Assembly (NCBI GenBank): GCA_964615415.1
Contig: CAZTNI010000001.1
Location: forward strand, 25,290-89,289
DNA length: 64,000 nt
Reading direction: 5' to 3'
From: an uncultured Candidatus Saccharibacteria bacterium
GTDB taxonomy: Bacteria > Patescibacteriota > Minisyncoccia > Phycocordibacterales > SBAW01
The number at the start of each line of letters is the position of its first letter. Position 1 is the stretch's first letter. The notes beneath the pieces were generated by a model, which saw only the letters and a list, made by a program, of their open reading frames with translations, was not told the origin of the DNA and searched no databases. A program made the position numbers and the translations under genes. This document shows positions 1,939 through 59,816 of this stretch, one piece after another.

Positions 1939-2443
1939 AATTAACTAATTCGAACTTCTAATAATTACTTGTAATCACTTATAAAGCGAACAATTCTACC
2001 TGCCTTCAAACCCCCCGCATCGCTCCTATTAAAGGAGGGGGAGGCACGAAGTGTTTGGTAGCAAAAATAGGATGTGGAATTTCTGTCGTGCAATCGTAAC
2101 GGGACAAGGTAATTTCTGGAGAACACAAATACTGACGCTCTAAGCAATAATTGCTTACAACGTCTTCATGTAACATTTCGCGAACGCATCGCGTATTAAA
2201 TTGTCAACGAACCATCATGCAGACTTCACACCATCTTTACAGATATGCGGAATGACAGCCACTCGCACCATTATATAGGGCGCGTGAAGGTGCCTGCAAA
2301 AAAGCCGTGTGGATAAACACTTTCGTGCTCATCTGACGAGCGGTCGACAAGAACGGTAATAAGCCCCCAGAGGGGCCGTTTCGTCGTTGTTTTCCGCCCA
2401 CAGAACATACACTAATTGGGCGCTAGAGTCAATCAATACACTC

Positions 2444-3196: not shown

Positions 3197-3262
3197 TGTC
3201 CTATACCCTGTCCTATCTAATGTCCTTTAAAAAGTTATCCACAATCAAGGACATCTGTGTCT
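3197..3262. promoter_or_regulatory. candidate operator: three direct TGTCCTWT repeats at exact 12-nt phasing plus one inverted copy, in the divergent promoter region between the wHTH gene and ftsK
   Basis: tgtcctata at 3197-3205, tgtcctatc at 3209-3217 and tgtccttta at 3221-3229. Inverted aggaca at 3248-3253. Confidence 0.35.
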
Positions 3263-8001: not shown

Positions 8002-8571
8002 ATGTTGGAATATAACGAAATTCTCCCTAAAAAGGTTATTTTACTCGACGGCGAACCGTACGAAGTGCTTGACGCACACGTCTTCCGCAAGCAGCAGCGC
8101 AAGCCGGTTAACCAGACCAAGCTTCGCCACCTTATTACCGGCAAGGTAACTGAACAGGCGTTCCATGTATCTGAAAAGGTTGAAGAGGCTGAACTCTCGA
8201 GCAAGGAGGTAAAGTACCTCTTTACCAACCGCGGCGAGTTCTGGTTCTGCGACCCAAGCAATCCTGCAGATCGCTTTAAGCTCGACGCTGCAGTAATCGG
8301 TTCACAGTCTGCGTTCATGAAAGTAAACTCAACAGCCGAGGCGATTATCTTTGATGAAAAAATTATCGGCTTACGTATGCCTATTAAGGTTGATCTTGTT
8401 GTAAAAGAAGCTCCTCCTGCGGTACGCGGCAACACCGCACAAGGCGGCACCAAGCAGATTGTGCTTGAAACAGGCGCCACAGTGAACGCTCCCCTCTTCG
8501 TAAACGAAGGAGATATTGTACGCATCAACACACAAGAAGGAGTCTACGTTGAGCGCGTCGACAAGAAGTAA
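8002..8571 (+). CDS. efp: elongation factor P
   Basis: 189 aa. KVILLDGEPYEVLDAHVFRKQQRKPVNQTKLRHLITGKV is a typical EF-P N-terminal KOW domain. Confidence 0.9.
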   Translation: MLEYNEILPKKVILLDGEPYEVLDAHVFRKQQRKPVNQTKLRHLITGKVTEQAFHVSEKVEEAELSSKEVKYLFTNRGEFWFCDPSNPADRFKLDAAVIGSQSAFMKVNSTAEAIIFDEKIIGLRMPIKVDLVVKEAPPAVRGNTAQGGTKQIVLETGATVNAPLFVNEGDIVRINTQEGVYVERVDKK

Positions 8572-9334: not shown

Positions 9335-9862
9335 TTAGGAAACGAGCGCGTCAATACTTTTGTCGAGCTCTTCTTCAGAAACCACTGTCTTTGCTTCTGG
9401 CTCAGCAGCTGGCTTCTTAATGGTTTCGCCTTCAAGGCGGTCAGAGGTAAACACAGCGCGACGTGGCGCAACCGTTACGTCTTCGCGAACCGTCTCGATA
9501 AGGAGATGACGGAAGATTTCGTTCGTATTGCGGAGGTACGACTCGAACGCTGGAATAGACTCCTTCTCAACTGCAAACTTTACCCAACCAAAGTATGATT
9601 CGTTATACTTTTCGCGCTTACCGGTAGCTGCACGCTCAACGGTGTACGCAAGCACAAATTTTTCTGGAGCACCTTCACTAATAATTTCTGCACCACCTTT
9701 AGCGAGTTCAGAACGAAGGCCCTCCACTGCTGAAGCAACTGCTACTTCATCAAGAGTAGGTACGAGATGGTACCCAATCTCGTAGATCGGGCGGCCATCG
9801 GCCTGCTTATTCGCTTGGGTTAAGGAATCCTTAGATTCCTGCGACTTTTCTGCCATGAACAC
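9335..9862 (-). CDS. rpsF: 30S ribosomal protein S6 (with N-terminal extension)
   Basis: YEIGYHLVPTLDE...KFVLAYTVE S6 core. Classical rpsF-ssb-rpsR order. Confidence 0.8.
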   Translation of the reverse strand: MFMAEKSQESKDSLTQANKQADGRPIYEIGYHLVPTLDEVAVASAVEGLRSELAKGGAEIISEGAPEKFVLAYTVERAATGKREKYNESYFGWVKFAVEKESIPAFESYLRNTNEIFRHLLIETVREDVTVAPRRAVFTSDRLEGETIKKPAAEPEAKTVVSEEELDKSIDALVS

Positions 9863-19053: not shown

Positions 19054-22000
19054 CTATCCCTTCAGGGTAATACCCTGCACCAGTGCTGCCGCTGCAGCGT
19101 CTCCGACTTCTACCTCAAGTGCTGCAAGGCCGGTTTCTTCCATAATCTCTGATTTATATTTCACCACCAAAGCCTCGCCTTCAAGATTCGTCTGCATACT
19201 GACTTGAGGGCGATCACCGATTGAAAGATTCGCCTGCTTGCGGAATTCTTGCACGGCCCGAATCGTGTCACGCAAAAGTCCCTCTTCTTTCAATTCTGGA
19301 GTTAGAGTCGTATCAAGCAAGACTTCTCCTTCCATAGACGCGTCTTGGGTAAGCGCCTTAACATTAAGCTCGTCTTTGAGTATCTCTTGCACTTGTAGAT
19401 TCGTCGGCAGAACTTTCACCGCCATAGACGCAAGAGGTTGACGCACTTTAATCCCCGCCTTGTCACGCGCCTGGAGACCAAGCGACGCGAGCTTGCGTGT
19501 TGTTTCCATTTGCTCAATAAGCAACGTGTCAACATTTCCTGCAGTAGGCCACGACGTAAGGTGCACACTTTCCGCATCGCCGCCAACATCTTTATACAAA
19601 CGCTCTGCAATGAACGGCATAAGAGGAGCACTAAGCTGTGCGAGTGTCAGAAGCACATAACGCTGTGTTGCAAGCGCATACTGTTTGTCTTCTGCATCCT
19701 TCCCCTTCACGCGGTCACGCGAGCGGCGTACATACCACGTAGAATAATCATCAATGAACGATCGCAGCGCGCGGCAAGCACCCGGGGTGTCGTACGCATC
19801 AAGCGCAGCAGTGATCGAAGAAGTGGTTTGATTAAGACGCGACAGTACCCAACGGTCGAGTACATGCGTACTGTTTGCTGCTTGTGTTGAGCCATCATAC
19901 TCCGCCTTGTAGAGCTCGAAAAACTTATAGCAATTCCAGAGCATCTGCACGACGCGATTATGTACCTCGCGCACTTCCTCGTCGCGGAAACTAAAGTCCT
20001 CTGCCTGCATCACCACACTGTTCATGAGGTAAAAGCGCATCGCATCCGCACCAAACATGTCCATCACCAAAAGCGGGTCGGTGTAGTTACCCTTCGACTT
20101 CGACATCTTCGAGCCGTCATTAGCAAGAATATTGCCCGTGGTCACAACGTTACGGAACGACAACTTATTAAACAGGAGTACGCCCATAGCGTGCATGTAG
20201 TAAAACCAGGTGCGCGTCTGTGCAATATACTCGGCAATAAAGTCTGCCGGGTATGCTTTCGGACGCAATCCAAAGAAGCGCTCCGGATTCACCACATCTT
20301 TTTTCATCGGGTAGTGCTCGGATGCAAACGGCATAGCGCCGGACTCCACCCAACAGTCGATGACTTCCGGAATGCGTTCATACTGTCTCCCCTTCTCGTC
20401 TACGAGCGTAATCGCGTCTATGTATGGTCGATGCAAGTCGAGATCGTACTGTTTTGTGTGTGGAAACGGCACAAAGTCGATCGGGCGGATTTCTCCATTA
20501 CGCAAAAACACTACGTCTCCAGCGCCTGCAATACACTCCGCAATAGTTTTACGCTCGACAATCGTGTTAAGAAGCCACGCCGGGCGCTCATGTGTCACGA
20601 TCAAAATATTTTTCCCCGCATAGCGACGCTCAATTTCAAAAATAAAGTCGCCGACACGCTCGCGGATCTGGGTATATGTCTCTGCGCCATCAGTCACGGT
20701 AGTAAATGGATCGCCATGGCTGTTAAACGACGCGCGCCACTCGATAACCGGCTTTCCGTTAAATATACCTACGTCGATTTCTCGCAGACGCTCATCAACC
20801 ATTACTGCCGAGTCCGACACACCAAGGACCTTTTGTGCGATCTTTGCTGTCTCGCGCGTACGTACCAGGGGCGACATGATAATGAGGTCGATTTTATTTT
20901 TTTGCGCAAATGTTTTTACTTGCGCTTCGACTCCTGCCTTCCCCTCTTCAGTCAGGTGGTTATTCGGGTCGCCCTTAGAGTCGAAAATCTGGTCGACATT
21001 GCTCTTCGCCTGACCATGACGCATCACAAAATATTTGTTGCCCGAGCGTTTTGTCTTTTTTGTCAGCTCGTCGATGCTACCCACCACCATAACCTTGTCA
21101 CCTTTCTTTTCCTTCCAAATAGGAAGTGGCGACGCCCAAAAACGATTGCGGGAAATGGTCCAGTCCGGCGCATTCTCCAGATTATTCTTAAAGCGGCCAT
21201 GCTTTAGGTGTTCAGGCACCCAGGTGATTTTTTCGTTTTCAGAAAGCATCTTTGCCTTCACCTTTTGGATATTGATGAACCAAGACCCGACCGCGTTGTA
21301 AATAAGTGGCGTGCCGCAGCGGTAGCAGTGTGGGTACGAGTGCGTATGCGGCTCTTTTTTATAGAGCAGCCCGCGCTTTTCTAGATCTTCTTTAATAAAT
21401 TTCTCTCCTTTTTTAAGATACTGACCACGCAGTGCTTCTGGAACAAGATCGTTATACGTCCCGTTTGCATTCAAAAGCTGCACCATCGGCAACTTTTCTT
21501 TCTGTCCGAGCGCAAAGTCGTCTTCACCGTACATTGGCGCAATGTGCACGATACCAGTACCGTCTGCAGTCGTTACAAAGTCTCCTGCAACTACGACGTA
21601 CTTTTTCCCTTTTACTCCTGCGATAGCAGGCACAGCAAAGAGAGGCTCGTATTCAACTCCAAGCAGTTCTGCACCCATGAGCGCCTTCACTACTTTTGAA
21701 CCTTCCGGCATGCGCTCTGCGGCCATGAGCAAATGCTCAACGCCTTCTTGTACCACTACGTACGAAATATCTTTTCCTACCGCAAGCGCTACATTACCCG
21801 GCAAGGTCCACGGCGTTGTCGTCCACGCAACGATAGATGTGTTTTGCGGCAGACCAGACTTCTCAGGATTTTTTATTTTAAATTTTACGTACGCGGTTTC
21901 TTCCGTAATATCTTTGTACGTGTTGTCCATCGCGATCTCCGCCTTTGCAAGCGGTGTTTCGCAGTGCGTACAGTACATCAAGACCTTGCGACCTTCGTAG

Positions 22001-22506
22001 AGCAGCTTCTTGCTATCCAAACGCTTAAGCGCCCACCAGACAGACTCGATGTACGAGTTGTCCATCGTCTTGTAGGAGTTTTTAAAGTCGACAAAGCGAC
22101 CAACACGGTCGACATACTTCTCCCAGTCGTCCACGTAGCGCAGCACCATCGAGCGTGCGGTTTCATTAAACACATCGATGCCGATATTGAGAATATCTTT
22201 CTTGCTCTTAAGCTCGAGCTTCTTCTCGACCATGCTTTCGATAGGTAGACCGTGCGTGTCCCAACCCCACCGGCGTGGAACATGGTAGCCGCGCATCGTT
22301 TTATAGCGCGGAATTACGTCTTTAATGACAGAAGAAAGGAGCGACCCCGAGTGCGGCAAGCCGGTCGCAAATGGTGGACCATCATAAAAAATAAACTCGC
22401 CCTTTGGAGACTTCTTTTGGAGCGACTTTTCAAAAATATGATTCTCTTTCCAGAAGGCAAGCACTTCCTCCTCGCGCTTGGCAACTTCCGACTTCCCGGT
22501 CGACAT
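19054..22506 (-). CDS. ileS: isoleucyl-tRNA synthetase, type 2 (eukaryote-like), carrying an inserted histidine-phosphatase-like domain
   Basis: FYDGPPFATGLPHSGS...RRWGWDTHGLPIE, TTPWTLPGN editing domain, KMSKSKGN. Residues ~491-690 match His_Phos_1 motifs (MRHGQAKSN, SPLVRTRETA, IVTHE). Confidence 0.9.
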   Translation of the reverse strand: MSTGKSEVAKREEEVLAFWKENHIFEKSLQKKSPKGEFIFYDGPPFATGLPHSGSLLSSVIKDVIPRYKTMRGYHVPRRWGWDTHGLPIESMVEKKLELKSKKDILNIGIDVFNETARSMVLRYVDDWEKYVDRVGRFVDFKNSYKTMDNSYIESVWWALKRLDSKKLLYEGRKVLMYCTHCETPLAKAEIAMDNTYKDITEETAYVKFKIKNPEKSGLPQNTSIVAWTTTPWTLPGNVALAVGKDISYVVVQEGVEHLLMAAERMPEGSKVVKALMGAELLGVEYEPLFAVPAIAGVKGKKYVVVAGDFVTTADGTGIVHIAPMYGEDDFALGQKEKLPMVQLLNANGTYNDLVPEALRGQYLKKGEKFIKEDLEKRGLLYKKEPHTHSYPHCYRCGTPLIYNAVGSWFINIQKVKAKMLSENEKITWVPEHLKHGRFKNNLENAPDWTISRNRFWASPLPIWKEKKGDKVMVVGSIDELTKKTKRSGNKYFVMRHGQAKSNVDQIFDSKGDPNNHLTEEGKAGVEAQVKTFAQKNKIDLIIMSPLVRTRETAKIAQKVLGVSDSAVMVDERLREIDVGIFNGKPVIEWRASFNSHGDPFTTVTDGAETYTQIRERVGDFIFEIERRYAGKNILIVTHERPAWLLNTIVERKTIAECIAGAGDVVFLRNGEIRPIDFVPFPHTKQYDLDLHRPYIDAITLVDEKGRQYERIPEVIDCWVESGAMPFASEHYPMKKDVVNPERFFGLRPKAYPADFIAEYIAQTRTWFYYMHAMGVLLFNKLSFRNVVTTGNILANDGSKMSKSKGNYTDPLLVMDMFGADAMRFYLMNSVVMQAEDFSFRDEEVREVHNRVVQMLWNCYKFFELYKAEYDGSTQAANSTHVLDRWVLSRLNQTTSSITAALDAYDTPGACRALRSFIDDYSTWYVRRSRDRVKGKDAEDKQYALATQRYVLLTLAQLSAPLMPFIAERLYKDVGGDAESVHLTSWPTAGNVDTLLIEQMETTRKLASLGLQARDKAGIKVRQPLASMAVKVLPTNLQVQEILKDELNVKALTQDASMEGEVLLDTTLTPELKEEGLLRDTIRAVQEFRKQANLSIGDRPQVSMQTNLEGEALVVKYKSEIMEETGLAALEVEVGDAAAAALVQGITLKG

Positions 22507-24242: not shown

Positions 24243-24282
24243 ATAAAAAAGAAAGAGCCGGTTCCATTTCTGGAACCGGCTC
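24243..24282 (-). terminator. rho-independent terminator for the island gene
   Basis: gagccggttcc agaaat ggaaccggctc followed by tttcttttttatac on the minus strand. Confidence 0.7.
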
Positions 24283-24311
24283 GAATCGAACTCGGGTGTA
24301 CTTGCTCGGTG

Positions 24312-25358
24312 TTAGCCGAGCGGCAAGAAGGTGCCGACGGTGTCGACACGGTCCGAGAAGACCTTGTACACCTGCACCTGGCCGTTCTGCTCGACTCGGT
24401 CGAGAGCCACGAACGTCCCACCGTTGAGGCCGGCCTTCCGGGCCTCCTGCACGGTCTCCATGCTGGGGTAGATCTGCACGTCGTGCACATCATCCCCGAT
24501 CTCCATGAGAACCGTACGAAGCGGCTTCGGCGCGGACGCCGAGACCATGCCGCGAAGAACGGGCTGCGGCGTAACGACCGCCTTCCCGACCTTCTTGGCA
24601 CCCTGGCCGCGAGGCTTCTCGATCTTGAACGCTTCGAGGAGCTTGCCGACCGTCTTGGTTTCCTCGTCGAAGGACTCGACGAGGATGACGGTCGTTCCGT
24701 GCGGCAACACCATCCACTCGGACGTGGTGACGGGAATGCCCCGCCGCCGCGCACCCTGCGCGTCGAAGCCGAAGATCACGTCGCGCGCGAGAAGCCGGTC
24801 GATCTTCGCCTGCTTCTGCGCCTGACGAGCAGCAACTTCCGCCGCACGCTGTGCATCCTCGGCAGCATTGCGCTGCCGGGCCGCCTCACGCGCAGCAGCC
24901 TCGTCCTTGGAGAAGACGAGCCTCTCCTTGTCGTTGAGGACAAAGCCCCGGCCGAGATACTCGGCAGCAGCCTCCTTGAGCAGGATCCGCTTCCGGATCC
25001 CCGAAGGCTCGTTGTTGACGAACGACGCAAGCGTGCGAACCTTTTCGATCCGCCCTTCACGACCCTTGCCAACGAGGGCGATGACCGGAGTGTCTCCCGC
25101 CATCGCCAGGATGCCGACACCGTCGAAGTCTTCCATGCCGGCGACGGCCTGGAAGGACCAGACCAGCTCGTCATCGATCGAGATCTTCGCGAGCACGAAG
25201 TTGAAGTGCTCCGGCAGATCCTTCTTGCGAAGAAGCTCGAGTTCGAGGGTCTTCCCCTCGACTTCGATCGTGCCGATCTCGACGTAGTGAGTCGAAGTGT
25301 CCTTGTTCTCGATGGTCACGAAACCAGGGAAGGAAATGCGGGAAACAATAGCGGTCAT
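24312..25358 (-). CDS. hypothetical two-domain protein with central Ala/Arg/Gln coiled coil, encoded in a high-GC island
   Basis: 348 aa of normal complexity. AGGAGG SD 6 nt upstream of ATG. GC3-rich codons (gtc gac acg gtc cga gaa gac...). The antisense ORFs here (430 aa on the plus strand and others) are low-complexity artifacts. Confidence 0.6.
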   Translation of the reverse strand: MTAIVSRISFPGFVTIENKDTSTHYVEIGTIEVEGKTLELELLRKKDLPEHFNFVLAKISIDDELVWSFQAVAGMEDFDGVGILAMAGDTPVIALVGKGREGRIEKVRTLASFVNNEPSGIRKRILLKEAAAEYLGRGFVLNDKERLVFSKDEAAAREAARQRNAAEDAQRAAEVAARQAQKQAKIDRLLARDVIFGFDAQGARRRGIPVTTSEWMVLPHGTTVILVESFDEETKTVGKLLEAFKIEKPRGQGAKKVGKAVVTPQPVLRGMVSASAPKPLRTVLMEIGDDVHDVQIYPSMETVQEARKAGLNGGTFVALDRVEQNGQVQVYKVFSDRVDTVGTFLPLG

Positions 25359-25481
25359 TGGTGTCCTCCTGGGACAGTGAGTGAATTTTCAAGATACCCC
25401 TACAGCTTGTAGAGGCAGGTTCTACCATTTACTATTGTATCACCTTTCGGCCAAAAAGTCAAGGTCTATTAGGGGCCTTAT

Positions 25482-30887: not shown

Positions 30888-31310
30888 TTATTTTACATCA
30901 ACACCCATTGAGCGGGCAGAACCAGCAACAACTTTCATTGCTTGCTCCATCGTGTGCGCATTGAGGTCTGGCATTTTGCGCTCTGCGATAGCCTGTACCT
31001 GCGCCTTTGTAAGCGTACCGATCTTTGCAGTATTTGGCTTACCACTTCCCTTCTCTTTACCGAGGGCCTTAAGGATAAGACCAGAAACCGGAGGAGTCTT
31101 GAGGATAAATGAGTAGGTGCGATCCTCGTATACAGAAATCTCTGCAGGGATCATGTCGCCACGCATGTCTTTAGATGCCTCGTTGAATTTCTTGATGAAT
31201 TCACCGATGTTGATGCCGGCAGGACCGAGCACCTGACCCATGGCAGGGGTCATAGCCGCAGCGCCACCCGCCGCAACAATCTTGATTTTCTTGACTATCT
31301 TCTTTGCCAT
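30888..31310 (-). CDS. rplK: 50S ribosomal protein L11
   Basis: KIVKKIKIVAAGGAAAMTPAMGQVLGPAGINIGEF.... Confidence 0.95.
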   Translation of the reverse strand: MAKKIVKKIKIVAAGGAAAMTPAMGQVLGPAGINIGEFIKKFNEASKDMRGDMIPAEISVYEDRTYSFILKTPPVSGLILKALGKEKGSGKPNTAKIGTLTKAQVQAIAERKMPDLNAHTMEQAMKVVAGSARSMGVDVK

Positions 31311-31328: not shown

Positions 31329-31880
31329 TTATATACGTTTGATTTGCAAAAAGTCCAATTCTACCGGGGTTTCGCGGCCAAACATAGCCACAAGGACCTT
31401 TACCTTGCCACGACTCTCGTCCACTTCACCCACCTTACCATCGAGGTCTTTAAACGGACCATCGACAATAACAACCGAGTCTCCAACCGTAAGGTCAATA
31501 GCATGTTTTACTGAACCCTCTGCAGCCTGCATGCGGCCCAAGAGCTCATCCACCTCCTTTTGCTGGAGCGGCACTGGGTTTACACCAGAACCAACGAAAC
31601 CGGTTACGCGCGGCGTGTTGCGTACGACGAACCACGACTGGTCGTCTACGATCATCTCCACAAGCACGTAGCCTGGGTAGATCTTTTCATCTTCCTCGAC
31701 GCGGCGACCGCCTTTAATTTTGACCGTGTGTTCTGTTGGTACAACCACGTTGAAAATCTTCTCTTGAAGACCGAGAGATTCGATGCGCTGCTTCAGGTTG
31801 CGAGCAACTGCGTTTTCATACCCTGCATAGGTGTGAATCGCATACCATGCCCGACCGAGACTAGAGTCTTGTTTTGCCAT
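31329..31880 (-). CDS. nusG: transcription termination/antitermination factor NusG
   Basis: WYAIHTYAGYENAV (NGN domain), C-terminal KOW GDSVVIVDGPFKDLDGKVGEVD. Confidence 0.9.
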   Translation of the reverse strand: MAKQDSSLGRAWYAIHTYAGYENAVARNLKQRIESLGLQEKIFNVVVPTEHTVKIKGGRRVEEDEKIYPGYVLVEMIVDDQSWFVVRNTPRVTGFVGSGVNPVPLQQKEVDELLGRMQAAEGSVKHAIDLTVGDSVVIVDGPFKDLDGKVGEVDESRGKVKVLVAMFGRETPVELDFLQIKRI

Positions 31881-31900: not shown

Positions 31901-32072
31901 ACTAAATAATGCGCTTAAGGATTGCTGAGAAGAGGTAGTCCAAAAGACCGAGGTATACCGCTACTGCGAGCGACAAACCGATAACAACAAGACTGTATGC
32001 GATTACTTGTGCACGAGTAGGCCACGATACATGCTTGAGCTCGCCCCGAACGTCTTTAATGTAGTTAAACAT
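31901..32072 (-). CDS. secE: preprotein translocase subunit SecE
   Basis: Hand-translated 56 aa: MFNYIKDVRGELKHVSWPTRAQVIAYSLVVIGLSLAVAVYLGLLDYLFSAILKRII. Below the ORF-track size cutoff. Canonical secE-nusG-rplK order. Confidence 0.7.
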
Positions 32073-32090: not shown

Positions 32091-32116
32091 GAAAAAAGGC
32101 CTCGGCGGCCTTTATT
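32091..32116 (-). terminator. rho-independent terminator
   Basis: aaaggcc tcggc ggccttt flanked by an A-run and a T-run. Downstream of the SIMPL gene stop on the minus strand. Confidence 0.5.
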
Positions 32117-32165
32117 TCTCCCCTATCGTACCCCTTGTTGAAGGGGGTTGTCAAGAGTGGGATAT

Positions 32166-33020: not shown

Positions 33021-33800
33021 TTACTGACGAGCTTGGACCTGTCTTATTACAGCCATAATGCTTTCGTACGGAAGTGCGCCAGAAATAGGCACCTGCACAC
33101 CATTACCCGCAACGATGGTGAAGGGTGTGCCTTGGCCACCATTTTGCATAGCATCCGCTGTTTCTGTATCTATTTTAGAACCAAATTTTTCACTCGAAAC
33201 ACAAGATGCAAACGTCTGTGCATTAGCACCAAACTGCGTTGCAAGCTGGGCGTAGTATGCAGGACTCATCTTGCCTTGGTTACTCATAACAGCGTCGGTG
33301 AATTTCCAAAAGCCGTTATTGCCAAGCTGGTCCGCGATACATTCTGCGGCGAGTGCCGAAGGACGCGCCTGCGGATGAATACTTTCGAGTGGGAAATTGC
33401 GGTGTACCCAGGCGATCTGTCCGTTTGATTCTTCAGCAATGCGCTTGAGTGTCGGATAAATGCGGGCGCAGTACGGACACTGAAAATCCGAGTATTCAAT
33501 AAGCATGATTGGCGCATCAGGAGAACCTACGATGTGGTCCTTGTCGGAGACAGGAGGCACATTAGTAGTTACCTGCTGTTCATTCGTGTTTACTGTAGGC
33601 ACTGCTCCTGCAGACGCCGGTCCTGGAAAATAATTTGTAAATAATATTGCAGCGGCGATCAGAGCACCCGAGGCAAGAATAGCCATAGCGGGAGAAAATT
33701 CTACTTTTTTTGTTTCTGGCATAGTACTTGTAGTGAGGATAATCGAACTACTCAAGGCTACCGTCCTTCTTCTCTTTAAGCAAATCACGAATTTCTTCAA
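33021..33800 (-). CDS. DsbA-like thiol:disulfide oxidoreductase (thioredoxin fold, CPYC)
   Basis: EYSDFQCPYCARIYP active-site motif. N-terminal membrane anchor. Start may be the internal MPETKK (33722) because the track start overlaps mscL. Confidence 0.75.
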   Translation of the reverse strand: MKKFVICLKRRRTVALSSSIILTTSTMPETKKVEFSPAMAILASGALIAAAILFTNYFPGPASAGAVPTVNTNEQQVTTNVPPVSDKDHIVGSPDAPIMLIEYSDFQCPYCARIYPTLKRIAEESNGQIAWVHRNFPLESIHPQARPSALAAECIADQLGNNGFWKFTDAVMSNQGKMSPAYYAQLATQFGANAQTFASCVSSEKFGSKIDTETADAMQNGGQGTPFTIVAGNGVQVPISGALPYESIMAVIRQVQARQ

Positions 33801-35974: not shown

Positions 35975-36403
35975 TTACTCCTGCACAGGAGCTGCTTCTG
36001 GAGCCGACGCAACTTCCTCTGAGGTTGAAGGAGTCTCGCGAGCCTCGACTGTCTCCTGCTTGCGCATCTGACGTTTTACATCGCGAGCAGCCTTGCGACG
36101 AATAAAGTACAGTTTTGAGCGGCGCGTACGAGTACGGCGCAACACTTCAACAGACTCGATTGCAGGAGAATAGAGCGGGAAGATTTTCTCTACCCCTACC
36201 CCGCTTGCAACGCGACGTACGGTAAACATTGCACCTGCTTCGGTGCCATGTTTAACCGCCAAAACAAGGCCCTCGAACGCCTGACGGCGGCTCTTGCCCT
36301 TCTCGACGATCTTCTGCCATACGCGGACAGTGTCGCCACTACGAAGCTCGAGCGCTGCGCGCTCCTTCATGTCGACTGGGGATGTTTTAACCGCTGATTT
36401 CAT
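35975..36403 (-). CDS. rplS: 50S ribosomal protein L19 (with C-terminal extension)
   Basis: LRSGDTVRVWQKIVEKGKSRRQAFEGLVLAVKHGTEAGAMFTVRRVASGVGVEKIFPLYSP. Confidence 0.9.
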   Translation of the reverse strand: MKSAVKTSPVDMKERAALELRSGDTVRVWQKIVEKGKSRRQAFEGLVLAVKHGTEAGAMFTVRRVASGVGVEKIFPLYSPAIESVEVLRRTRTRRSKLYFIRRKAARDVKRQMRKQETVEARETPSTSEEVASAPEAAPVQE

Positions 36404-39856: not shown

Positions 39857-41452
39857 CTATATCTCCTCAAACGTCGGGATAATATTTGCCGTTACCGACT
39901 GAGTCAGTTGCGAGGTCGTGCGACCGCGATCGATCGTACAGGTAAGTGTGTAGACCGTTTCTGCAGTAATAACCTGCGCGATACTTCCCTGCGAACCAGT
40001 GCCAATTTGAGTGCCGTTTGCTTTGACTGTACATGAACGAGCGTTATTAACACTCCACGCAACGGTTACATTGCTTCCGGTGCGCACTGACGTCGCAGGA
40101 TAGTTACCGTTTACGGTGATTGAAGATGAGACCGGGAGGCACTGGTTGCCTACAACCGCGTATCCGGTATTAGCAGAACAGGATCCGTCGGTTTCCTGGT
40201 GACAATTTGCTGGAACTGAAGTCTGTGCACCTGCAAAGTTTGAACAAAGGTCGCTCGGTACACACTGATTTCCTGAAACTGTATAACCCACATTCGCATC
40301 ACAAGTTCCATTTTGATTGCGATGACAATTGTTTGGCACCGTAAGTTGAGTACCGGAGAAGTTTGAACAGAGGTCCTCTGTTGCTGGAACACACGAACTT
40401 CCCTGGAGCACATACCCTGTTGGACATGACGACACACAAACGCCACTACTATTCATCACTTGTCCACCAGGACATGCCGAGACGCACTGCCCGTTTTGAG
40501 ATACGTAGCCAAACGGCACGGTTCCTTGTTGACCGGAGATATTTGGGCACACATCGCTTTGCGTAGCGACACAGCTATTGTTTTGATACATGTATCCTGC
40601 AGGACAGCCACAGGTCTGAGGATTTCCTTTACCGTTACTGGTACAGTCCGGAGCAGGTACACACTGACCACCCTGCATTACTTGACCATTCGGACATTCT
40701 TGAATCTCTTGGCATTGTGAAGATGCTGACTGTACCCCAGGAACATTCGGACAGTGGTCGGTTGGTCCCGTATTGTTGTCATTTCCTCCCTCTCCACCGC
40801 TGCATTCATTTTCAGGAATAGTCGTATGCACTTCGAGCTGGCTGCTTTCGTAATACTCTACGTAGTAGCCGCAAGGCTCCCCGTCGCCATAGGTCAACAC
40901 GTTCCATTCACGATGACACCCGCTGCTATCACATTGCACTCCTCCTACATATGAATCCCCTAGTCTTTCACACTCCAAACCTCCACTCGTATTGCAGTCT
41001 CCTTGGTTTGCAATCCTATCTGCGTCTCTCCATGCCGCTGCTTCAGCGCTAGACAAACAGCGTCCATCGAGAACCATTGTTGAGCACGTGTCGCCGCTTC
41101 CTCCTCCGCCCCCGGAAGAACTGCAATATTCTGTATACCCATGTGAACACCAATATTCCGCAGAGTAGCAGTTACCATCAGAGCCTAGTGTTTCTCCTCC
41201 GCTACATGCCTGAGACCCGCCACCTGAACCACTGCAGTAACTTGAGTATCCTTGACTGCACCAATAGTCAGCATCGCTGTTCGCACTACTTCCCTCGTAG
41301 TAGTTACCATCCGGTCCTTGGTAACAAGTTACTGTTGCTCCTGAACTTGTTTGGCAAGTAGCCGCATTTGCAGGTGTAGGAACAAAAAATGACAGAGCTG
41401 CAAGGAAGAAAAATCCAAGAATGAGTGCACCGCGTTTTATAGATAGAGTCAT
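39857..41452 (-). CDS. secreted cysteine-rich repeat protein with conserved C-terminal domain and IPTFEEI tail
   Basis: Signal peptide MTLSIKRGALILGFFFLAALSFFVPTPANA. Many CPxGxVxQGxxCV-type repeats. C-terminal domain ...TVYTLTCT...SVTANIIPTFEEI. Confidence 0.7.
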   Translation of the reverse strand: MTLSIKRGALILGFFFLAALSFFVPTPANAATCQTSSGATVTCYQGPDGNYYEGSSANSDADYWCSQGYSSYCSGSGGGSQACSGGETLGSDGNCYSAEYWCSHGYTEYCSSSGGGGGSGDTCSTMVLDGRCLSSAEAAAWRDADRIANQGDCNTSGGLECERLGDSYVGGVQCDSSGCHREWNVLTYGDGEPCGYYVEYYESSQLEVHTTIPENECSGGEGGNDNNTGPTDHCPNVPGVQSASSQCQEIQECPNGQVMQGGQCVPAPDCTSNGKGNPQTCGCPAGYMYQNNSCVATQSDVCPNISGQQGTVPFGYVSQNGQCVSACPGGQVMNSSGVCVSSCPTGYVLQGSSCVPATEDLCSNFSGTQLTVPNNCHRNQNGTCDANVGYTVSGNQCVPSDLCSNFAGAQTSVPANCHQETDGSCSANTGYAVVGNQCLPVSSSITVNGNYPATSVRTGSNVTVAWSVNNARSCTVKANGTQIGTGSQGSIAQVITAETVYTLTCTIDRGRTTSQLTQSVTANIIPTFEEI

Positions 41453-41456
41453 AAAA

Positions 41457-41810
41457 TTACTGGTTAGCTGCGGGAGGAAGCACTTGTGTTGGAGGTGTAT
41501 TGTCTGAAGGTATTGGCATCGGTATTACCGGAAACACTGGTGTTTCTGTTTGAGGTTCAACTTCTGATATTTCATAGAGCACGTACCATGCGGCACCTGC
41601 CCCTCCACACAAAAGAGCGACAATAAATACCCCGAGCAATATCCACAAGGTTTTTTTATGACCTAACTCAGGTGGAAGAGTAGAAACAGGAGCAGACACA
41701 GGAGACGTTTTCATATTTTCTGAAGCCATACTTCTTTTAGTATAGCTCCCCTCTGTAGCTATCCACATAAAACACTGTCGTGTGTGGATAAAAGAAAAAG
41801 GGCCACGCAT
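41457..41810 (-). CDS. small Pro-rich single-TM membrane protein
   Basis: 4 nt upstream of the Cys-rich gene. TM segment LWILLGVFIVALLCGGAGAAWYVL. Confidence 0.4.
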   Translation of the reverse strand: MRGPFSFIHTRQCFMWIATEGSYTKRSMASENMKTSPVSAPVSTLPPELGHKKTLWILLGVFIVALLCGGAGAAWYVLYEISEVEPQTETPVFPVIPMPIPSDNTPPTQVLPPAANQ

Positions 41811-41825
41811 GTGATTGCGTGACCC
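41787..41825 (-). terminator. rho-independent terminator
   Basis: gggtcacgca atcaca tgcgtggccc followed by tttttctttta on the minus strand. Confidence 0.65.
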
Positions 41826-41859
41826 TATAAGTCGTTCACCCCCATGAGACCTCGCGATC

Positions 41860-42225
41860 TCAGTTGGTGAAATAGACGTGGATGAGCCCCTGCTCTCCGT
41901 CCTGGATCGTGCCGCCGAAGCGGTACGGACCCGGGCCGTAGAAGAGATTCACTTCCGAATACCGGATAGCGAAGCGAGGTCCGGCGTCGTGAGCTCCCAG
42001 CATGACATGCTGGATACAAGGCGCCAGAAGCTGAGCATTGAGCACCTGCACTTGGACCCCCTCGAAAGAGTAGGTCTGGGTGTCGCAGTTGTAGCTGTCA
42101 GCTCCAACCGTGGTGACTCGACCCAGGGTCTCGATGACCTGAGAGTTAGTCAGGTCAGCCGCCGCCACCGAAGTGGCGAACAGCGCAGCGGCCAGCGAGG
42201 CTGCCGCCAGAATCTTCCGTCTCAT
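41860..42225 (-). CDS. small secreted 2-Cys protein (high-GC island gene A)
   Basis: Signal peptide MRRKILAAASLAAALFATSVAAA. SD ACGGAGGG upstream. GC-rich codons. Confidence 0.6.
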   Translation of the reverse strand: MRRKILAAASLAAALFATSVAAADLTNSQVIETLGRVTTVGADSYNCDTQTYSFEGVQVQVLNAQLLAPCIQHVMLGAHDAGPRFAIRYSEVNLFYGPGPYRFGGTIQDGEQGLIHVYFTN

Positions 42226-42240
42226 CGGGATGACCCTCCG

Positions 42241-42582
42241 TTACGTCGTCGCCGGGCAAGCCGGGCTGATGAACTCGACCCATTCGGTGGGGCGAGCCGT
42301 CACAACGCCATCACCGCAACGAAGCCAGGCTTCGTAGTTGGTGTAGACCTTGATGACAGTGCTCCCGACGATCGGAACGAGAATTCCGATCTGCCCAGCG
42401 AGCAGCAGATTGTACTGCTCGTTGTAGGGCTGATAGGTCGAGCCCGGCGCGTTGAAGAAGTCGATCCAACCACCGGCGTAAAACGCCTCGGTCAGACGGA
42501 CTTCCTGTTCCTGCGCCGACGCCACCGAAGTGGCACCGAAAGCAAGCAGCGCGGCAGTAGCCGCGATGACGATTTTCTTCAT
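42241..42582 (-). CDS. small secreted 2-Cys protein (high-GC island gene B)
   Basis: ATG at 42580-42582 with AAAGGAGGG SD. Signal peptide MKKIVIAATAALLAFGATSVASA. Confidence 0.6.
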   Translation of the reverse strand: MKKIVIAATAALLAFGATSVASAQEQEVRLTEAFYAGGWIDFFNAPGSTYQPYNEQYNLLLAGQIGILVPIVGSTVIKVYTNYEAWLRCGDGVVTARPTEWVEFISPACPATT

Positions 42583-42614
42583 ATGAATGGCCCTCCTTTC
42601 GCGGCCATTTTCGC

Positions 42615-42636
42615 GAGAGCGCACCGTTGCGCTCTC
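42615..42636. promoter_or_regulatory. perfect 9-bp-arm palindrome upstream of island gene B (operator or 5'-UTR hairpin)
   Basis: gagagcgca ccgt tgcgctctc. Confidence 0.35.
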
Positions 42637-42660
42637 AGGTTGACACCTGGCCAGATCCTA

Positions 42661-44211
42661 TCACAGGACCGACCTTTTGTCAAGCCTCCCTACTCTCTGG
42701 CCAAAAAAGCCTGAAAAGACAACCAAAAGTGCACCTATGGGAAAGAACGTACCGAACACCTGGTAAGGAGTGGAGTCGGTACGCAGAGGTACGTCTTCCT
42801 CCACTACACTAGAGAGATCCCATGAAGTCTCTGTGACAACCATACCACGATTGTCGAGCATGTACGCTGGGGACATGTTGCCGGATTGCACGTACCACCT
42901 CCCCTCCTCCACTGCGCGCACTTTCGCTATCGATTGCATCTGTGCAAAAACGGTACGCGACCCATGGAACCAGCTGTAGGAGGAAACATTTGCGAGTACT
43001 GACGCTCCCTTTTCTACATCACGAGCATATAAGTACGGACTCATAACTTCGTCACAAAAACGTACTGCCATATTCCCACTCCCCACCTGTGCAAGTTTTG
43101 TGTGTGTCCCACTTACGTACGAACGTGTATTTCGCACTTGTTCTTGAAACGCCTTATTCCCTACCAACGCGAGCACTCCGTGCGATATATACGGCACGTA
43201 CTCACCAAGTGGAAGGATAAATTGTTTGTCACTCGTTTCAATACGACCATCGCGATACACAAAGATACTTCGCGCGTGCGTGTTGCCGTCATTGCTTCTC
43301 ACACTTTCTGCATCTATGAATAGCGGAACTTGCGGCACCATGTTCGCATCGCGCGCATACCGTGCAAATGCCGCACTCTCTGGAAGTAGCAGTGCTTCCG
43401 CAGTTACATGTGGCGCAACAAGTGTTGCAAGTGTATCTATACGAGTTTCCGCTTCGCCCGGAAGGAAGTGAAGTTGTGGCGGGAAGTACGTACTTACTGC
43501 AGCGACGCGAATAGTTTCTTCACTCGTCGTAATATTTCCAAACAACGACCACGCTCCATACCCGCTCACACAGCACACAACGACAATACTTACGCCGACA
43601 TAGATGTTGCGCTCGATGTTCTTCGTTGTAATGACTCTATATATAAGAACATTCACGAGTATCACTGTTGCGCTCAACAGGTATACACCGCCAACGGACG
43701 CAAGTTGCAACAACAACGCATTATTCGCGAGCACGTATCCCAAGTGACCTAAGGTAAAGTGCGCACCCAGGAGCGATCCGTTTCCTGCAAACACAAATGC
43801 AAAGACGTGCGCATGCAACCATTCCCCCACTACCCATGCAGACGGAATGCATACAAGCACGGTGTATCGATACGAAAGAAAATACTGCAGCACCACTGCA
43901 AACACCGCTGTTCCAAGCGAGAGTACGCAGACTGAAAAAATCCAGTGTGTGCCGACTGCAAGTATTTGGAGTAGTGGGTGTTCAATCCCAAACCAATCTA
44001 TCGGCAGTGTGTGCCAAAAAATTGCCCACAATGCTAACCCATACAAAGGGAGTCCGAGTAAAAAACCTCTGAACGCTTGAGTGGAAAGACCGACTGGTCG
44101 TTTTGTCGTTATAAAAAGAAATGGCAAAAACCCTACCAGTGCAAGTGGCCACAGGGCAGGGACAACAAATCCCACACCAAGAAAAATGCCGGAAACGAAA
44201 GATGCTATCAA
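42661..44211 (-). CDS. lnt: apolipoprotein N-acyltransferase-like (N-terminal multi-TM + CN-hydrolase domain)
   Basis: Catalytic-triad contexts LLLPESAAF (Glu), SDKQFILPLGEYVPY (Lys), VRFCDEVMSP (Cys). C-terminal TM. Confidence 0.7.
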   Translation of the reverse strand: MIASFVSGIFLGVGFVVPALWPLALVGFLPFLFITTKRPVGLSTQAFRGFLLGLPLYGLALWAIFWHTLPIDWFGIEHPLLQILAVGTHWIFSVCVLSLGTAVFAVVLQYFLSYRYTVLVCIPSAWVVGEWLHAHVFAFVFAGNGSLLGAHFTLGHLGYVLANNALLLQLASVGGVYLLSATVILVNVLIYRVITTKNIERNIYVGVSIVVVCCVSGYGAWSLFGNITTSEETIRVAAVSTYFPPQLHFLPGEAETRIDTLATLVAPHVTAEALLLPESAAFARYARDANMVPQVPLFIDAESVRSNDGNTHARSIFVYRDGRIETSDKQFILPLGEYVPYISHGVLALVGNKAFQEQVRNTRSYVSGTHTKLAQVGSGNMAVRFCDEVMSPYLYARDVEKGASVLANVSSYSWFHGSRTVFAQMQSIAKVRAVEEGRWYVQSGNMSPAYMLDNRGMVVTETSWDLSSVVEEDVPLRTDSTPYQVFGTFFPIGALLVVFSGFFGQRVGRLDKRSVL

Positions 44212-46551
44212 TTAGATTTCCTGAAACGCTGGCAACAGCGTAATCGTTGCGGTCGCACTTACACTTGTCTCACCATTGCTACAGGTAAGCGTATAGCGTT
44301 TTGTCTGTGTAATAGCAGTTGTTGAAACAGTACCCGTGGTGCTGGTAACGCTGTATGTACCAGTGTCATCTGTCGGGTCTGGAGAGATAGTGCAGGTAAG
44401 ACCTGTGATTGAACTGAGTGTCCAGCGGAGTGTCGAGGCTACGCCACGGCGAACTTTGTCGCCATAGAACGAGGAAATACTTGGCAAGTTAGCAACACAC
44501 TGTGTACCACTCCAGCTAAATCCTGATGGAATACAGCTGCCAGTAGGACCTGGGTTTGGCGCACTGCAGCCCGTTGGAACAGACGCCTGTCCGCCAATGA
44601 TGTCGGTACAAATATCGAGTGAACATTGGCTCCCCGTCCAGTAGTATCCTGACGGAATACATACACCTGATGGGCTTGGAGTTGGACCGGCGCAGCCCGT
44701 TGGAAGTGATGATTGCGAACCACCAACATCCGTACACACATCCGCTGGTCCAACGGTTACGGTAACCGTGTCTACCGCACTACTCCCTCCTGCTCCTGTG
44801 CACGTCAATGTATACGTGTACGTGCCGAGTGTAGAAAATGGGCCAACAGTGCGCTCTACGCCACTCGTACCCGTCGTAGATCCAGTCCACGGCGCAGCAG
44901 CATCTTTAGTGAGGGTGCAGTCGCTCGAGTTAGTAGACGACCAACTAAACGGAAGAGACGAACCTTGTGTTGTCGACACTGTGTCATCCGCTTCATTATT
45001 TCCAAGCAAGTCTGCAGTAGTGGCTGGGTTTACAGTTAGCGTTGTAGAACACGTGCCGCTGCCACCTGGTCCGGTTACGGTGCCGGTGTACGTAGTTGTC
45101 GTACTTGGCCCAACTGAAGTAGAACCTGCGCCCGGAGGAGTAGACACAGTCCCAACACTGGTTATTGAAAATGAGGTTGCCGCTGTTGAAGACCAGGTGA
45201 GCGTAGACGAACCACCACTATTTATAGTGCTTGGGCTAAGACTCAAGGTACACGTTGGTGTTGTAGCAGCAGTCCACGTAACGCGAACTTCTCCAAGACC
45301 ACCATAACTACCATCAACTTCTCTGTTCGGACCTCCGGTGCCTGTACTACCGCGTGCACCTACAGTAACTGCAATTGATGAGTCTTGGGTTAGTTCTCCA
45401 AAAGAAAATGTTTTGGTCGCATAGCCACCACCACCGCCTCCACCACCGTCGTTACTTAAACCACGACTGCCTCCACCTCCACCGCCGCCTGGCGACTTTC
45501 CGTAGTTTCCAAAAATAATGCCGGGACCGACAGCGCCGCCGCCATCACCCCCTGGTCCGCCCGCATCACCTCCACTACCACTCCAGTTGCCGGTCGGGTA
45601 TCCAGCATTATTACCGTCCTCTCCGTCTTGACTACCAGAACCTCCTCCCGAAGTCGATCCGCCGTCTCCACCAGGACCATTTCCTCCACAACAATAACTA
45701 GATGCGCGCCCCTTTTCTCCTCCATTAGCAATAACAGGGGTCGGAGAATTAAATTTACTTTGACCGCCGTTGGTTGCGTCGTCTTGCGACCACCATCCTG
45801 CCGAGCCACCACCGCCACCACCTCCCCACACTTCTACCGTCAAAGAGTCATATGCCGGAACAGTGAAAGTACCTGAAGACGTAAAGTGTTGTGTACCGCC
45901 GGTAGCGTCTATCCAGGTAATGCGTACCTCTCCGCGCGCGCCGTCACCTCCATCAGGGCTACCACTTGTAGCACCCGAGCCCCCAGACCCTACTGTTACG
46001 CTTATGTTAGACCCTGCTGTAAGCTCACCGCTTGTGTACGTTCTTGTTGCGTATGCTCCTCCTCCGCCGCCACCATAGTTTTTATAATATCCTGAAAAGT
46101 ATTCTGAATAGGAACTACTGCCTCCTCCCCCAGGAATCATACCGTTTGCCCCGTTGTCAGTGAGTGTATTAGGCGCCCCTTTACCACCGGCAGCCCCTCC
46201 TGCATTACCGCCCGCGCCTCCGCTCGCGCCACTCTGGCCCGCACTACCATTTGCACCTGAAGTTGCCCCAGAGTATGTACCTCCAGAACCTGCAGTACCA
46301 TTGTTATCGCCCCTACTTCCGCCATTCGCTATAAGCGGCGTGGGTGCATTAAATTTACTTTGCCCACCGTTACTACCATCAGCGTTGGAATTAGCGCCTC
46401 CTCCTCCACCGCCCCACACCTCCACTGTTATAGATGTATAGCCCGTAGGTACAGTAAAAGTGCCCGAACTTGTAAATGTTTGAGAGCCTGCAAACACAAG
46501 CTGTGGAAGAAATAAGAGTACACTGGCGAGAAGTAATTTTTTCATGATCAT
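44212..46551 (-). CDS. secreted glycine-rich protein with ~200-aa internal tandem duplication and conserved C-terminal domain/LPAFQEI tail
   Basis: Signal peptide MIMKKLLLASVLLFLPQLVFA. Two copies of QxFTSSGTFTVP..TVEVWGGGGGG...NGGQSKFN.PTP.IANGG...GEVR.TW. C-terminus ...KRYTLTCSNGETSVSATATITLLPAFQEI. Confidence 0.7.
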   Translation of the reverse strand: MIMKKLLLASVLLFLPQLVFAGSQTFTSSGTFTVPTGYTSITVEVWGGGGGGANSNADGSNGGQSKFNAPTPLIANGGSRGDNNGTAGSGGTYSGATSGANGSAGQSGASGGAGGNAGGAAGGKGAPNTLTDNGANGMIPGGGGSSSYSEYFSGYYKNYGGGGGGAYATRTYTSGELTAGSNISVTVGSGGSGATSGSPDGGDGARGEVRITWIDATGGTQHFTSSGTFTVPAYDSLTVEVWGGGGGGGSAGWWSQDDATNGGQSKFNSPTPVIANGGEKGRASSYCCGGNGPGGDGGSTSGGGSGSQDGEDGNNAGYPTGNWSGSGGDAGGPGGDGGGAVGPGIIFGNYGKSPGGGGGGGSRGLSNDGGGGGGGGYATKTFSFGELTQDSSIAVTVGARGSTGTGGPNREVDGSYGGLGEVRVTWTAATTPTCTLSLSPSTINSGGSSTLTWSSTAATSFSITSVGTVSTPPGAGSTSVGPSTTTTYTGTVTGPGGSGTCSTTLTVNPATTADLLGNNEADDTVSTTQGSSLPFSWSSTNSSDCTLTKDAAAPWTGSTTGTSGVERTVGPFSTLGTYTYTLTCTGAGGSSAVDTVTVTVGPADVCTDVGGSQSSLPTGCAGPTPSPSGVCIPSGYYWTGSQCSLDICTDIIGGQASVPTGCSAPNPGPTGSCIPSGFSWSGTQCVANLPSISSFYGDKVRRGVASTLRWTLSSITGLTCTISPDPTDDTGTYSVTSTTGTVSTTAITQTKRYTLTCSNGETSVSATATITLLPAFQEI

Positions 46552-47159: not shown

Positions 47160-47405
47160 TTATTGGGTCTTCAGAAGCCGAGCCACGCCCGCCTTCCGGC
47201 GTGCAGCGGTGTTCTTCTTTATAAGGCCACGCTTCATTGCCTTGTCGATAGCCTGGTATGCAGCTGCGAGTGCAGCGGCGTCCCCTTTGTTTGCAGAGCG
47301 AGCTGTCTTAAGAGCAGTGCGCAATGCAAAACGGCGCGAGTCGTTCATAGACTTGCGGCGGCGGCTTTGGCGGTGTGCCTTCTTTGCTGACTTTGTTATT
47401 GCCAT
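47160..47405 (-). CDS. rpsT: 30S ribosomal protein S20
   Basis: MAITKSAKKAHRQSRRRKSMN.... Start at the internal ATG. Confidence 0.85.
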   Translation of the reverse strand: MAITKSAKKAHRQSRRRKSMNDSRRFALRTALKTARSANKGDAAALAAAYQAIDKAMKRGLIKKNTAARRKAGVARLLKTQ

Positions 47406-59711: not shown

Positions 59712-59816
59712 CGTCTTATCCACATGGGTTTTTAGAGGGGAGGGTTGCAAAGATTATTAGGTTTGATACAACTTCTTTCATTGGGGAAAAATTATTAGGT
59801 TAAAGAACACTAGGTA

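Follow-up and report, generated by a model that had tools for sequence, protein, structure and literature searches.

A GC-rich two-gene operon beside lnt as a probable conserved slot for diversifying secreted proteins in a Paceibacterota-like bacterium

In the window analyzed here, a 64,000-nucleotide stretch of bacterial DNA, two small minus-strand genes (B, followed by A) occupy a GC-rich region at positions 41826-42660, between an apolipoprotein N-acyltransferase-like gene (lnt) and a gene for a 90-aa membrane protein. With modest confidence, we favor the reading that this site, conserved within a Paceibacterota-like lineage (Parcubacteria, candidate phyla radiation (CPR)), serves as a slot for extracellular proteins that are strongly expressed, carry disulfide bonds, and diversify rapidly; the phylum assignment comes from one named Lnt homolog, a Candidatus Paceibacterota protein that is 37% identical. 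A preliminary description of this DNA had taken the region for a recently acquired foreign cassette. That proposal is not supported, as a homolog of A was found at the same locus in a relative and four further relatives carry analogous genes.

The closest relative compared, at 60% Lnt identity, is represented by a 2.2-kb JGI contig (L006), and the further loci were found through Lnt homologs. In L006, lnt is followed by a gene for a 129-aa protein (P0059) and then by a counterpart of the 90-aa membrane protein gene of the window, with 46-49% identity between the two products. P0059 is the ortholog of A, being 36% identical to it (E = 8.6e-6 over 1.84 billion proteins) and sharing the motif YGxGPYxFGGTxQDG. 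L006 contains the A-like gene only; the B gene is not present. The GC content of the P0059 gene is 0.60 compared with 0.41-0.51 for the L006 flanks, and its GC content at third codon positions (GC3) is 0.715 compared with 0.47 for L006 lnt. A homolog of native composition at this locus had been named beforehand as the finding that would speak against an imported cassette; a homolog is indeed there, but it is GC-rich too.

Small genes encoding signal peptides also adjoin lnt in four relatives with lower Lnt identity. After lnt, L004 (53% Lnt identity) has one 162-aa gene with the Shine-Dalgarno (SD) sequence AAGGAGGGC and a GC3 of 0.73, L009 (50%) has at least four small signal-peptide genes in tandem, and L007 (47%) has one that is interrupted by the contig end. 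In L010 (41%, on a 749-kb contig), two genes with the SD AAAGGAGGG and GC3 values of 0.65 and 0.67 (compared with 0.45) stand before lnt. The slot genes of these relatives all encode signal peptides and mostly have GGAGG-type SDs, the exceptions being L007, where none is visible, and L009_s2, which has GAGGAG. Their GC3 is 0.65-0.73 compared with 0.45-0.63 for their own lnt genes, again except for L009_s2 (0.56), and the number of Cys residues in the mature part is even in 11 of 11 complete proteins of the class. At these loci, the called starts that are led by GGAGG all belong to small signal-peptide proteins with raised GC3, except for a 348-aa protein encoded in the 24.3-25.4 kb region of the window (island 1), which has raised GC3 and no signal peptide. 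The 90-aa membrane protein gene is kept behind the slot in L006 and, as read by eye, in L004.

The slot genes fall into at least five mutually unrelated families. Those families that can be recognized in more than one genome track the Lnt tree, with A-like genes in the window and L006 and L004_s1-like genes in L004 and L009, and the orthologs have diverged beyond Lnt, at 36% versus 60% identity for A and P0059 and 40% versus 69.5% for the L004_s1-like pair. Members of the class were also seen away from lnt, in L004 (1427-1936, minus strand, 169 aa, GC3 of 0.79) and L011 (51-428, minus strand, 125 aa, GC3 of 0.65), each with a GGAGG SD and an even number of Cys residues, so the gene class is not restricted to the lnt slot. 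Because neither A nor B is a lipoprotein, the adjacency to lnt looks like conserved synteny with no functional link.

The B-A pair is a complete operon unit, self-contained in that it has its own promoter, leader, two SD-led genes, and terminator (Table 1). The candidate promoter matches the consensus at 10 of 12 positions, has the TG extension, and is the sole promoter-like match in 41300-43000. Its -35 element lies inside the final lnt codons, and the TG that extends the -10 element comes from the lnt stop codon, TGA (42663-42661); judged from these elements, transcription would start near 42648. A corresponding arrangement follows lnt in L006 (TTGACA-17-TAAGGT) and, as read by eye, in L004 and L007. 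The SDs of both genes are strong, and in the window a GGAGG at the proper distance from a real start is found only before A, B, and the gene of island 1. The block AAGGAGGGCCAT around the SD of B is also present at the first small gene of L006, and in the predicted fold most of this SD lies within the loop that a short AUGGCC/GGCCAU stem closes.

Downstream of A, a hairpin at 41826-41799 consists of 11 pairs and is followed by a T-run (z = -4.6). Because it is on the minus strand directly 3' of gene A, it would end the B-A transcript, and a hairpin with a T-run is also found behind the small gene in L006 and, as read by eye, in L004. The view that a native terminator marks the edge of the region is thus right as to the hairpin, which is real, but not in treating it as a boundary of native DNA alone. 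No Rfam match at E up to 1 was obtained in 41650-42800, and in the window as a whole only tRNAs pass the gathering score.

Table 1. Features of the B-A locus and of the regions compared with it (window coordinates)
Feature	Position	Strand	Details
Gene B	42241-42582	-	113 aa from ATG; signal peptide MKKIVIAATAALLAFGATSVASA; cleavage after ASA; 90-aa mature part with Cys 66 and 86
Gene A	41860-42225	-	121 aa; signal peptide MRRKILAAASLAAALFATSVAAA; 98-aa mature part with Cys 24 and 47
Candidate sigma-70-type promoter of B-A	42655-42683	-	TTGACA (42683-42678), 17-nt spacer, TG-extended TAGGAT (42660-42655)
SD of gene B	42591-42599	-	AAAGGAGGG; 8 nt ahead of ATG
SD of gene A	42234-42241	-	ACGGAGGG; overlaps last base of B stop codon, in 15-nt spacer
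Intrinsic terminator of B-A	41789-41826	-	11-bp stem (7 G-C), 6-nt loop, then TTTTTCTTTT
Perfect palindrome	42615-42636		GAGAGCGCA-ACGG-TGCGCTCTC; 9-bp arms, 4-nt loop; no T-run behind
Shared 20-nt block	42158-42177		In signal-peptide coding part of A; 19/20 match to B block at 42515-42534
lnt (upstream anchor)	42661-44211	-	Apolipoprotein N-acyltransferase-like, LNT_N and CN_hydrolase; native composition
Membrane protein gene (downstream anchor)	41457-41729	-	90 aa, single-pass (start taken at MASENMK...); native composition
Island 1	24255-25462; gene 24312-25358	-	Single 348-aa ORF; no signal peptide; GC 0.63, GC3 0.82
Native genes without recognizable SD (examples)	35975-36403, 30888-31310, 47160-47405, 9335-9862, 8002-8571

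Analysis of the leader placed the perfect palindrome that had been reported upstream of B in the predicted 5' untranslated region, behind the -10 element and ahead of the SD, at about +12 to +33 from the likely transcription start. It folds as a 9-bp hairpin (-30.5 kcal/mol and z = -3.3 for the whole 81-nt leader), and perfect hairpins with arms of at least 9 bp are frequent in the window, where there are ∼17 distinct ones compared with ∼2.6 by first-order Markov simulation. The suggestion that this palindrome is an operator found no support: it is not present in the L006 leader, and its half-site is no more frequent in the window than expected (19 matches with up to one mismatch, compared with 18.4). 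As a terminator of lnt it was rejected, since it has no T-run, unlike the other hairpins of the window, and is downstream of the promoter. Most simply, the palindrome can be read as a leader hairpin that possibly stabilizes the mRNA.

The products of A and B carry predicted Sec signal peptides of the kind cleaved by signal peptidase I, as read from their sequences: a basic n-region (MRRK or MKK), an Ala/Leu-rich hydrophobic core, and an AxA site (AAA|D in A, ASA|Q in B). As had been proposed, each mature part contains two Cys residues. A lipobox was found in neither protein; the signal peptides contain no Cys, and the first mature Cys is at position 24 in A and 66 in B. Because the lipobox Cys is missing, A and B are not lipoproteins. 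The gene B ORF is extensible to a GTG start, which gives the 127-aa form of the open reading frame (ORF) listing, and A has the conserved C-terminal motif FYGPGPYRFGGTIQDG. The two genes share the 20-nt block of Table 1 and a similar SD context (GGAGGGyCAT), and the similarity of their proteins is limited to the first 34 residues. The shared block and SD context suggest a tandem duplication or gene conversion of A and B. We did not accept A and B as clear paralogs, since they resemble each other only around the SD and signal peptide, which suggests a duplication without proving it.

The composition of the region agrees with what the preliminary description gave, ∼830 bp at ∼60% GC: the GC content of 41826-42660 is 0.599 compared with 0.493 for the whole window, and an 800-bp window at 41851 has a GC z of 5.0 relative to the remaining window. 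Island 1 is the only stretch that exceeds it (z = 6.8). The two ORFs, B first and A second, occupy the region in the same reading frame with a 15-nt spacer, and both proved to be as first described in strand, length, and signal peptides. GC contents at the three codon positions are 0.63/0.45/0.73 in A and 0.58/0.47/0.74 in B, compared with a GC3 of 0.32-0.58 in native genes; this peak of 0.73-0.74 shows that these minus-strand frames are coding. Third-position A has a frequency of 0.06 in the B-A region and 0.03 in island 1 compared with 0.24 in native genes, and third-position T is partly kept. The codons TTA, CTA, and TCA are missing from both genes.

A plus-strand ORF of 278 aa (41878-42714) spans the whole region in antisense, and its existence is explained by this avoidance of NNA codons. 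We considered it very improbable that this ORF is the real gene or that the region is a chimeric join made in assembly. Such an artefact would account for the ends of Logan contigs inside the region (at 42291, 42513, and 42619) and for the lack of entries for A and B in the NCBI protein set that accompanies the 316-kb source contig. In the antisense ORF, however, GC is maximal at codon position 1, the mirror image of the true minus-strand frame, and the ORF is not conserved in L006, the relative in which lnt, a GC-rich small gene, and the membrane protein gene likewise follow one another. The Logan assemblies SRR14271376, SRR14271370, and SRR14271367 are 100% identical to the window over 40984-42619, and the agreement of three independent assemblies shows that the right junction, with the downstream native gene, is real and no assembly artefact. 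The left junction (42660) lies outside these contigs; its support comes from a relative in which the genes are arranged alike. The NCBI protein set includes Lnt and the island 1 protein; as A and B are missing from it, the region may be unannotated or mis-called there.

Native genes of the window contrast with A and B in both codon usage and translation signals. The genes rpsF, rpsT, rplK, rplS, ssb, nusG, secE, and efp have no SD, a GC3 of 0.46-0.57, and third-position A frequencies of 0.18-0.26, so strong SDs are specific to the class to which A and B belong, as had first been noted. Since these eight highly expressed native genes lack the codon bias, we rejected translational selection as its cause. 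About half of the Parcubacteria have been reported to lack an anti-SD motif (PMC9297842), and the SD-less native genes fit such a loss; the 16S rRNA gene lies outside the window.

Island 1 is built like the B-A operon: a TG-extended consensus promoter (TTGACT-17-TACAAT) precedes a leader hairpin and an AGGAGG SD, and the unit closes with a 12-bp terminator. Its codon usage is the same as that of A and B. Both of its junctions were verified in a 16.7-kb Logan contig. The island 1 protein had no match in Pfam, phages, plasmids, or viral contigs, and its two weak matches to PHROGs (best E = 0.0026, over 50 residues) are uninformative. The proposal that the two regions share a signature is therefore sound with respect to codon usage, but the recent foreign acquisition that it was taken to imply is not supported, and no donor homolog was found in the collections searched. 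A tentative reading is that this lineage has two expression regimes: ordinary genes, even those for ribosomal proteins, without SDs and with neutral codons, and a hypervariable, disulfide-bonded secreted class in conserved slots such as that next to lnt, with GGAGG SDs, consensus promoters, strong terminators, and GC3-rich codons poor in third-position A. On this reading, mRNA selection or recombination-driven GC-biased conversion within tandem arrays would have kept the signature over deep divergence. The class would then mark the interaction or effector repertoire of the cell.

As a test for a recent island, composition alone does deviate (GC z = 5.0, GC3 of 0.73-0.74, third-position A of 0.06). 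The borders of the region carry no integrase or transposase gene, the neighbors being lnt and genes for membrane and surface proteins, and no flanking direct repeats; the nearest tRNA genes are >2 kb from the B-A region. A single recent import would be difficult to square with the ortholog at the same site in L006, at 60% Lnt identity, with the signature that the slot genes of five relatives share (lnt GC3 of 0.45-0.63), and with the lack of both homologs elsewhere and mobility features. An old import should have ameliorated by now. Because it would have done so, and because translational selection is excluded, the signature seems to be actively maintained. Candidate mechanisms for this upkeep are selection on the mRNA, GC-biased conversion in tandem copies, and ongoing exchange with an unsampled pool; the 19/20-nt block of A and B hints at GC-biased conversion.

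A different account of the same facts is that the lnt slot acts as a hot spot of recombination and has taken up, again and again, small cassettes made of an SD, an ORF, and possibly a terminator, whose source would be a GC-rich pool outside the available samples. This pool could be other bacteria, the host of the symbiont, or CPR phages or plasmids, and the gene in the 24.3-25.4 kb region could be from the same source. We regard recurrent acquisition as rather unlikely, but it explains several observations directly: high GC and GC3, depletion of third-position A, and SDs are common to both regions and sharply unlike native genes, the ribosomal ones included, and slot content varies in family and copy number among the relatives. 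Frequent horizontal transfer, mostly between Patescibacteria, has been reported (PMC12455944), and SDs may be useless in a Parcubacterium that lacks the anti-SD (PMC9297842). On the other hand, the collections searched yielded no donor homolog, the borders show neither flanking direct repeats nor mobility genes, and the predicted promoter lies partly within native lnt at a conserved position. In addition, two families follow the Lnt phylogeny and have diverged beyond Lnt, so they would be long resident yet unameliorated.

Several points weigh against the conserved-slot reading. The composition of the region is exactly what horizontal transfer predicts, and the codon bias is foreign to native highly expressed genes, so ordinary translational selection fails as an explanation, while the mechanism that would hold GC3 at ∼0.7 is a candidate only. 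If the host lacks the anti-SD, then SDs in its genes would be pointless and a foreign origin would be favored. Vertical descent of the slot genes, which we infer, is backed by two orthologous pairs; the other slot genes are mutually unrelated, a pattern that also agrees with repeated replacement from outside. Finally, two of the relatives, L005 (50% Lnt identity) and L011 (42%), have no small signal-peptide gene adjoining lnt.

A and B are new orphan families, in agreement with the initial inability to place them. Neither protein had a match above the cut-off in Pfam, NCBIfam, or PHROGs, and a PDB sequence search with their mature parts gave no relatives. In an exhaustive HMMER scan against 1.84 billion cluster representatives, for which A was the only query, two matches were obtained, P0059 and P0058, and P0059 is the single true homolog of A in this collection. 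P0058 consists of six choice-of-anchor D/HYDIN-VesB Ig domains; A residues 81-115 (PRFAIRYSEVNLFYGPGPYRFGGTIQDGEQG) align to the beginnings of several of its repeats, over ∼35 residues that cross a P0058 domain boundary. Because A itself has no match to the corresponding profiles (NF012200 or PF22544) at E up to 1, this resemblance is a weak hint of a beta-sandwich. A word-indexed search of 5.8 billion proteins with A and B returned self matches only. No match was obtained by tblastn of A and B against plasmids, by blastn of the B-A region against phages, in scans of viral contigs with A and B, or in a scan of JGI metagenome contigs with B. Thus, no homolog of B was found in the word-indexed proteins, plasmids, viral contigs, JGI contigs, or profile libraries, and no homolog of A or B away from the lnt locus was found in the 5.8 billion proteins, 1.84 billion clusters, plasmids, phages, viral contigs, or JGI contigs. 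Scans of contigs of GTDB species representatives with Lnt alone and with a clade alignment yielded no relative. The possibility that B or A is homologous to the L004/L009 family was rejected on hhalign probabilities of 19% and 1%. Single-sequence AlphaFold2 models contain strands only, with pLDDT values (predicted local distance difference test) of 39 for A and 46 for B, and are unusable; Foldseek of the B model against PDB gave a best E of 0.38, which is not significant.

The best NCBIfam match of B, to the BLB8/JUQZ-1 family model NF053514 (E = 0.019), bears on the idea that one of the two is an antimicrobial protein exported by Sec and the other its partner or immunity protein, directed against competitors or the host. 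In favor of this idea, A and B are small, predicted to be secreted, Cys-paired, fast-evolving, and in tandem under their own strong expression signals. The match, however, scores 15.2 bits against a cut-off of 40 and spans B residues 1-69, so it begins within the signal peptide. The operon has no double-glycine leader, ABC exporter, or membrane immunity protein, and the neighboring gene for the 90-aa membrane protein is conserved independently of A and B. Both proteins are predicted to be exported, so neither would be a cytoplasmic immunity factor, and L006 has the A-like gene alone, so the pair is not obligatory. Since the operon lacks genes for immunity or transport and matched no profile at its cut-off, the bacteriocin function suggested in the preliminary description is improbable.

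Based on the results above, we propose the following for the B-A operon. B and then A would be transcribed together, starting at the promoter that overlaps the lnt stop codon, and efficiently translated from their strong SDs, with the transcript closed by the intrinsic terminator. The high expression that these signals predict would be followed by export of both proteins through Sec and cleavage by signal peptidase I, and one disulfide would form in each protein, most likely from its two Cys residues. A DsbA-like/Thioredoxin_4 protein of 259 aa is encoded at 33021-33800 on the minus strand, 9 kb from the operon; it is plausibly the oxidase for paired Cys residues of secreted proteins. B and A would then act outside the cell, as extracellular or cell-surface proteins. 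Depending on the member of the clade, the slot contains between one and at least four small genes for signal-peptide proteins, whose families are unrelated or barely related; these genes outpace the flanking genes in evolution and would turn over by duplication, loss, and replacement. The orphan status, fast divergence, tandem duplication, and conserved slot point to a diversifying pressure at an interface between cells or between cell and phage. The likely role of A and B would accordingly lie in contact with other cells, be they host, competitor, or phage, and not in housekeeping. Among such roles, we rank adhesion or interaction with a host first; an antimicrobial one comes second, at the low probability given above.

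The properties of this gene class invite comparison with known systems of variable secreted or surface proteins. Filamentous plant pathogens produce small secreted cysteine-rich effector proteins. By analogy, the class of A and B resembles such effector repertoires in its short, lineage-specific, and fast-diverging proteins, which have signal peptides and even Cys counts and lack detectable homologs, and in its tandem duplication within genomic compartments of distinct composition. Unlike those effectors, A and B are bacterial (CPR) and have a Sec/signal peptidase I signal, so the likeness is one of evolutionary pattern only. The Vlp lipoproteins of Mycoplasma combine a conserved 5' region and signal peptide with divergent mature parts. 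A and B likewise share the SD context and signal-peptide DNA (19/20 nt), have unrelated mature parts, and are arranged in tandem with variable copy number, but they have no lipobox Cys, internal repeats, or phase-variable promoter tract. The O-antigen and capsule clusters between galF and gnd are hypervariable and of atypical GC content between conserved flanks. The lnt slot is similar in its conserved flanks, its variable content, and a compositional offset that persists across related lineages; its offset, however, is upward, and it holds one to four tiny genes and no biosynthetic cluster. Genomic islands of Patescibacteria have been reported at 2.7-45 kb (PMC12455944). The B-A region has the atypical GC content and codon usage of those islands but is 0.83 kb long, has no mobility genes, and is found at the same locus in a distant relative. 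With respect to the choice-of-anchor D/HYDIN-VesB domains, the likeness of A is limited to the P0058 repeats described above. We found no description in the literature of an SD-led, GC3-rich slot for secreted proteins in an SD-poor CPR lineage, and the slot extends the known themes of hypervariable surface or effector loci and of variable loci with atypical GC content.

CPR bacteria, or Patescibacteria, are thought to live attached to other cells, and to our knowledge the proteins that mediate this contact are almost unknown. One reason for their obscurity is that small orphan proteins escape gene callers and homology searches, as A and B did. If the pattern is true genome-wide, the combination of a GGAGG SD, GC3-rich codons, a signal peptide, paired Cys residues, and a conserved slot would be a screen for interaction proteins that uses sequence only. 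It would also raise the concrete question of how translation is initiated in a lineage that otherwise makes no use of SDs. For programs that detect genomic islands, the locus is a caution that a sharp compositional anomaly need not equal a recent transfer.

The neighborhood of the locus codes overall for surface and extracellular proteins. Genes for two large secreted proteins, both on the minus strand, flank it, one of 531 aa that is Cys-rich and has no Pfam match (39857-41452) and one of 779 aa that is Gly-rich (44212-46551; Gly_rich_2, PKD-like). Between the B-A terminator and the gene for the 90-aa membrane protein lies an inverted pair of DnaA-box-like 9-mers, one a perfect TTATCCACA and the other an 8/9 copy. 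Such 9-mers are found in the window at 41759-41767(+), 41783-41791(-), 41639-41647(+), 2308-2316(-), 3235-3243(+), and 59716-59724(+). Four perfect copies of TTATCCACA are present in the window compared with ∼0.5 expected from length alone, and at least three of them (2308, 3235, and 41783) are in short gaps between ORFs. In relatives, the motif is at ∼5401-5409 in L004, ∼1843-1850 in L006, and ∼3088-3096 in L010; it is at the equivalent position in L004 and L006, a fixed 38-41 nt from a TATACT -10 element, and upstream of the small-gene pair in L010. On this basis, it may be a conserved regulator site.

Two further observations concern other parts of the window. Upstream of secE (31905-32072) and nusG (31329-31880), a promoter is predicted at 32095-32154 on the minus strand (TTGACA-18-TACGAT, 10/12), and within ∼12 nt behind it, ahead of secE, there is a hairpin with a T-run. 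The hairpin may belong to an attenuator-like leader, or it may terminate the upstream SIMPL/DUF541 gene and overlap the secE promoter. At 19054-22506 on the minus strand, a class I aminoacyl-tRNA synthetase of 1150 aa (tRNA-synt_1 and Anticodon_1) has a His_Phos_1 domain inserted at residues 493-646, which is an unusual fusion.

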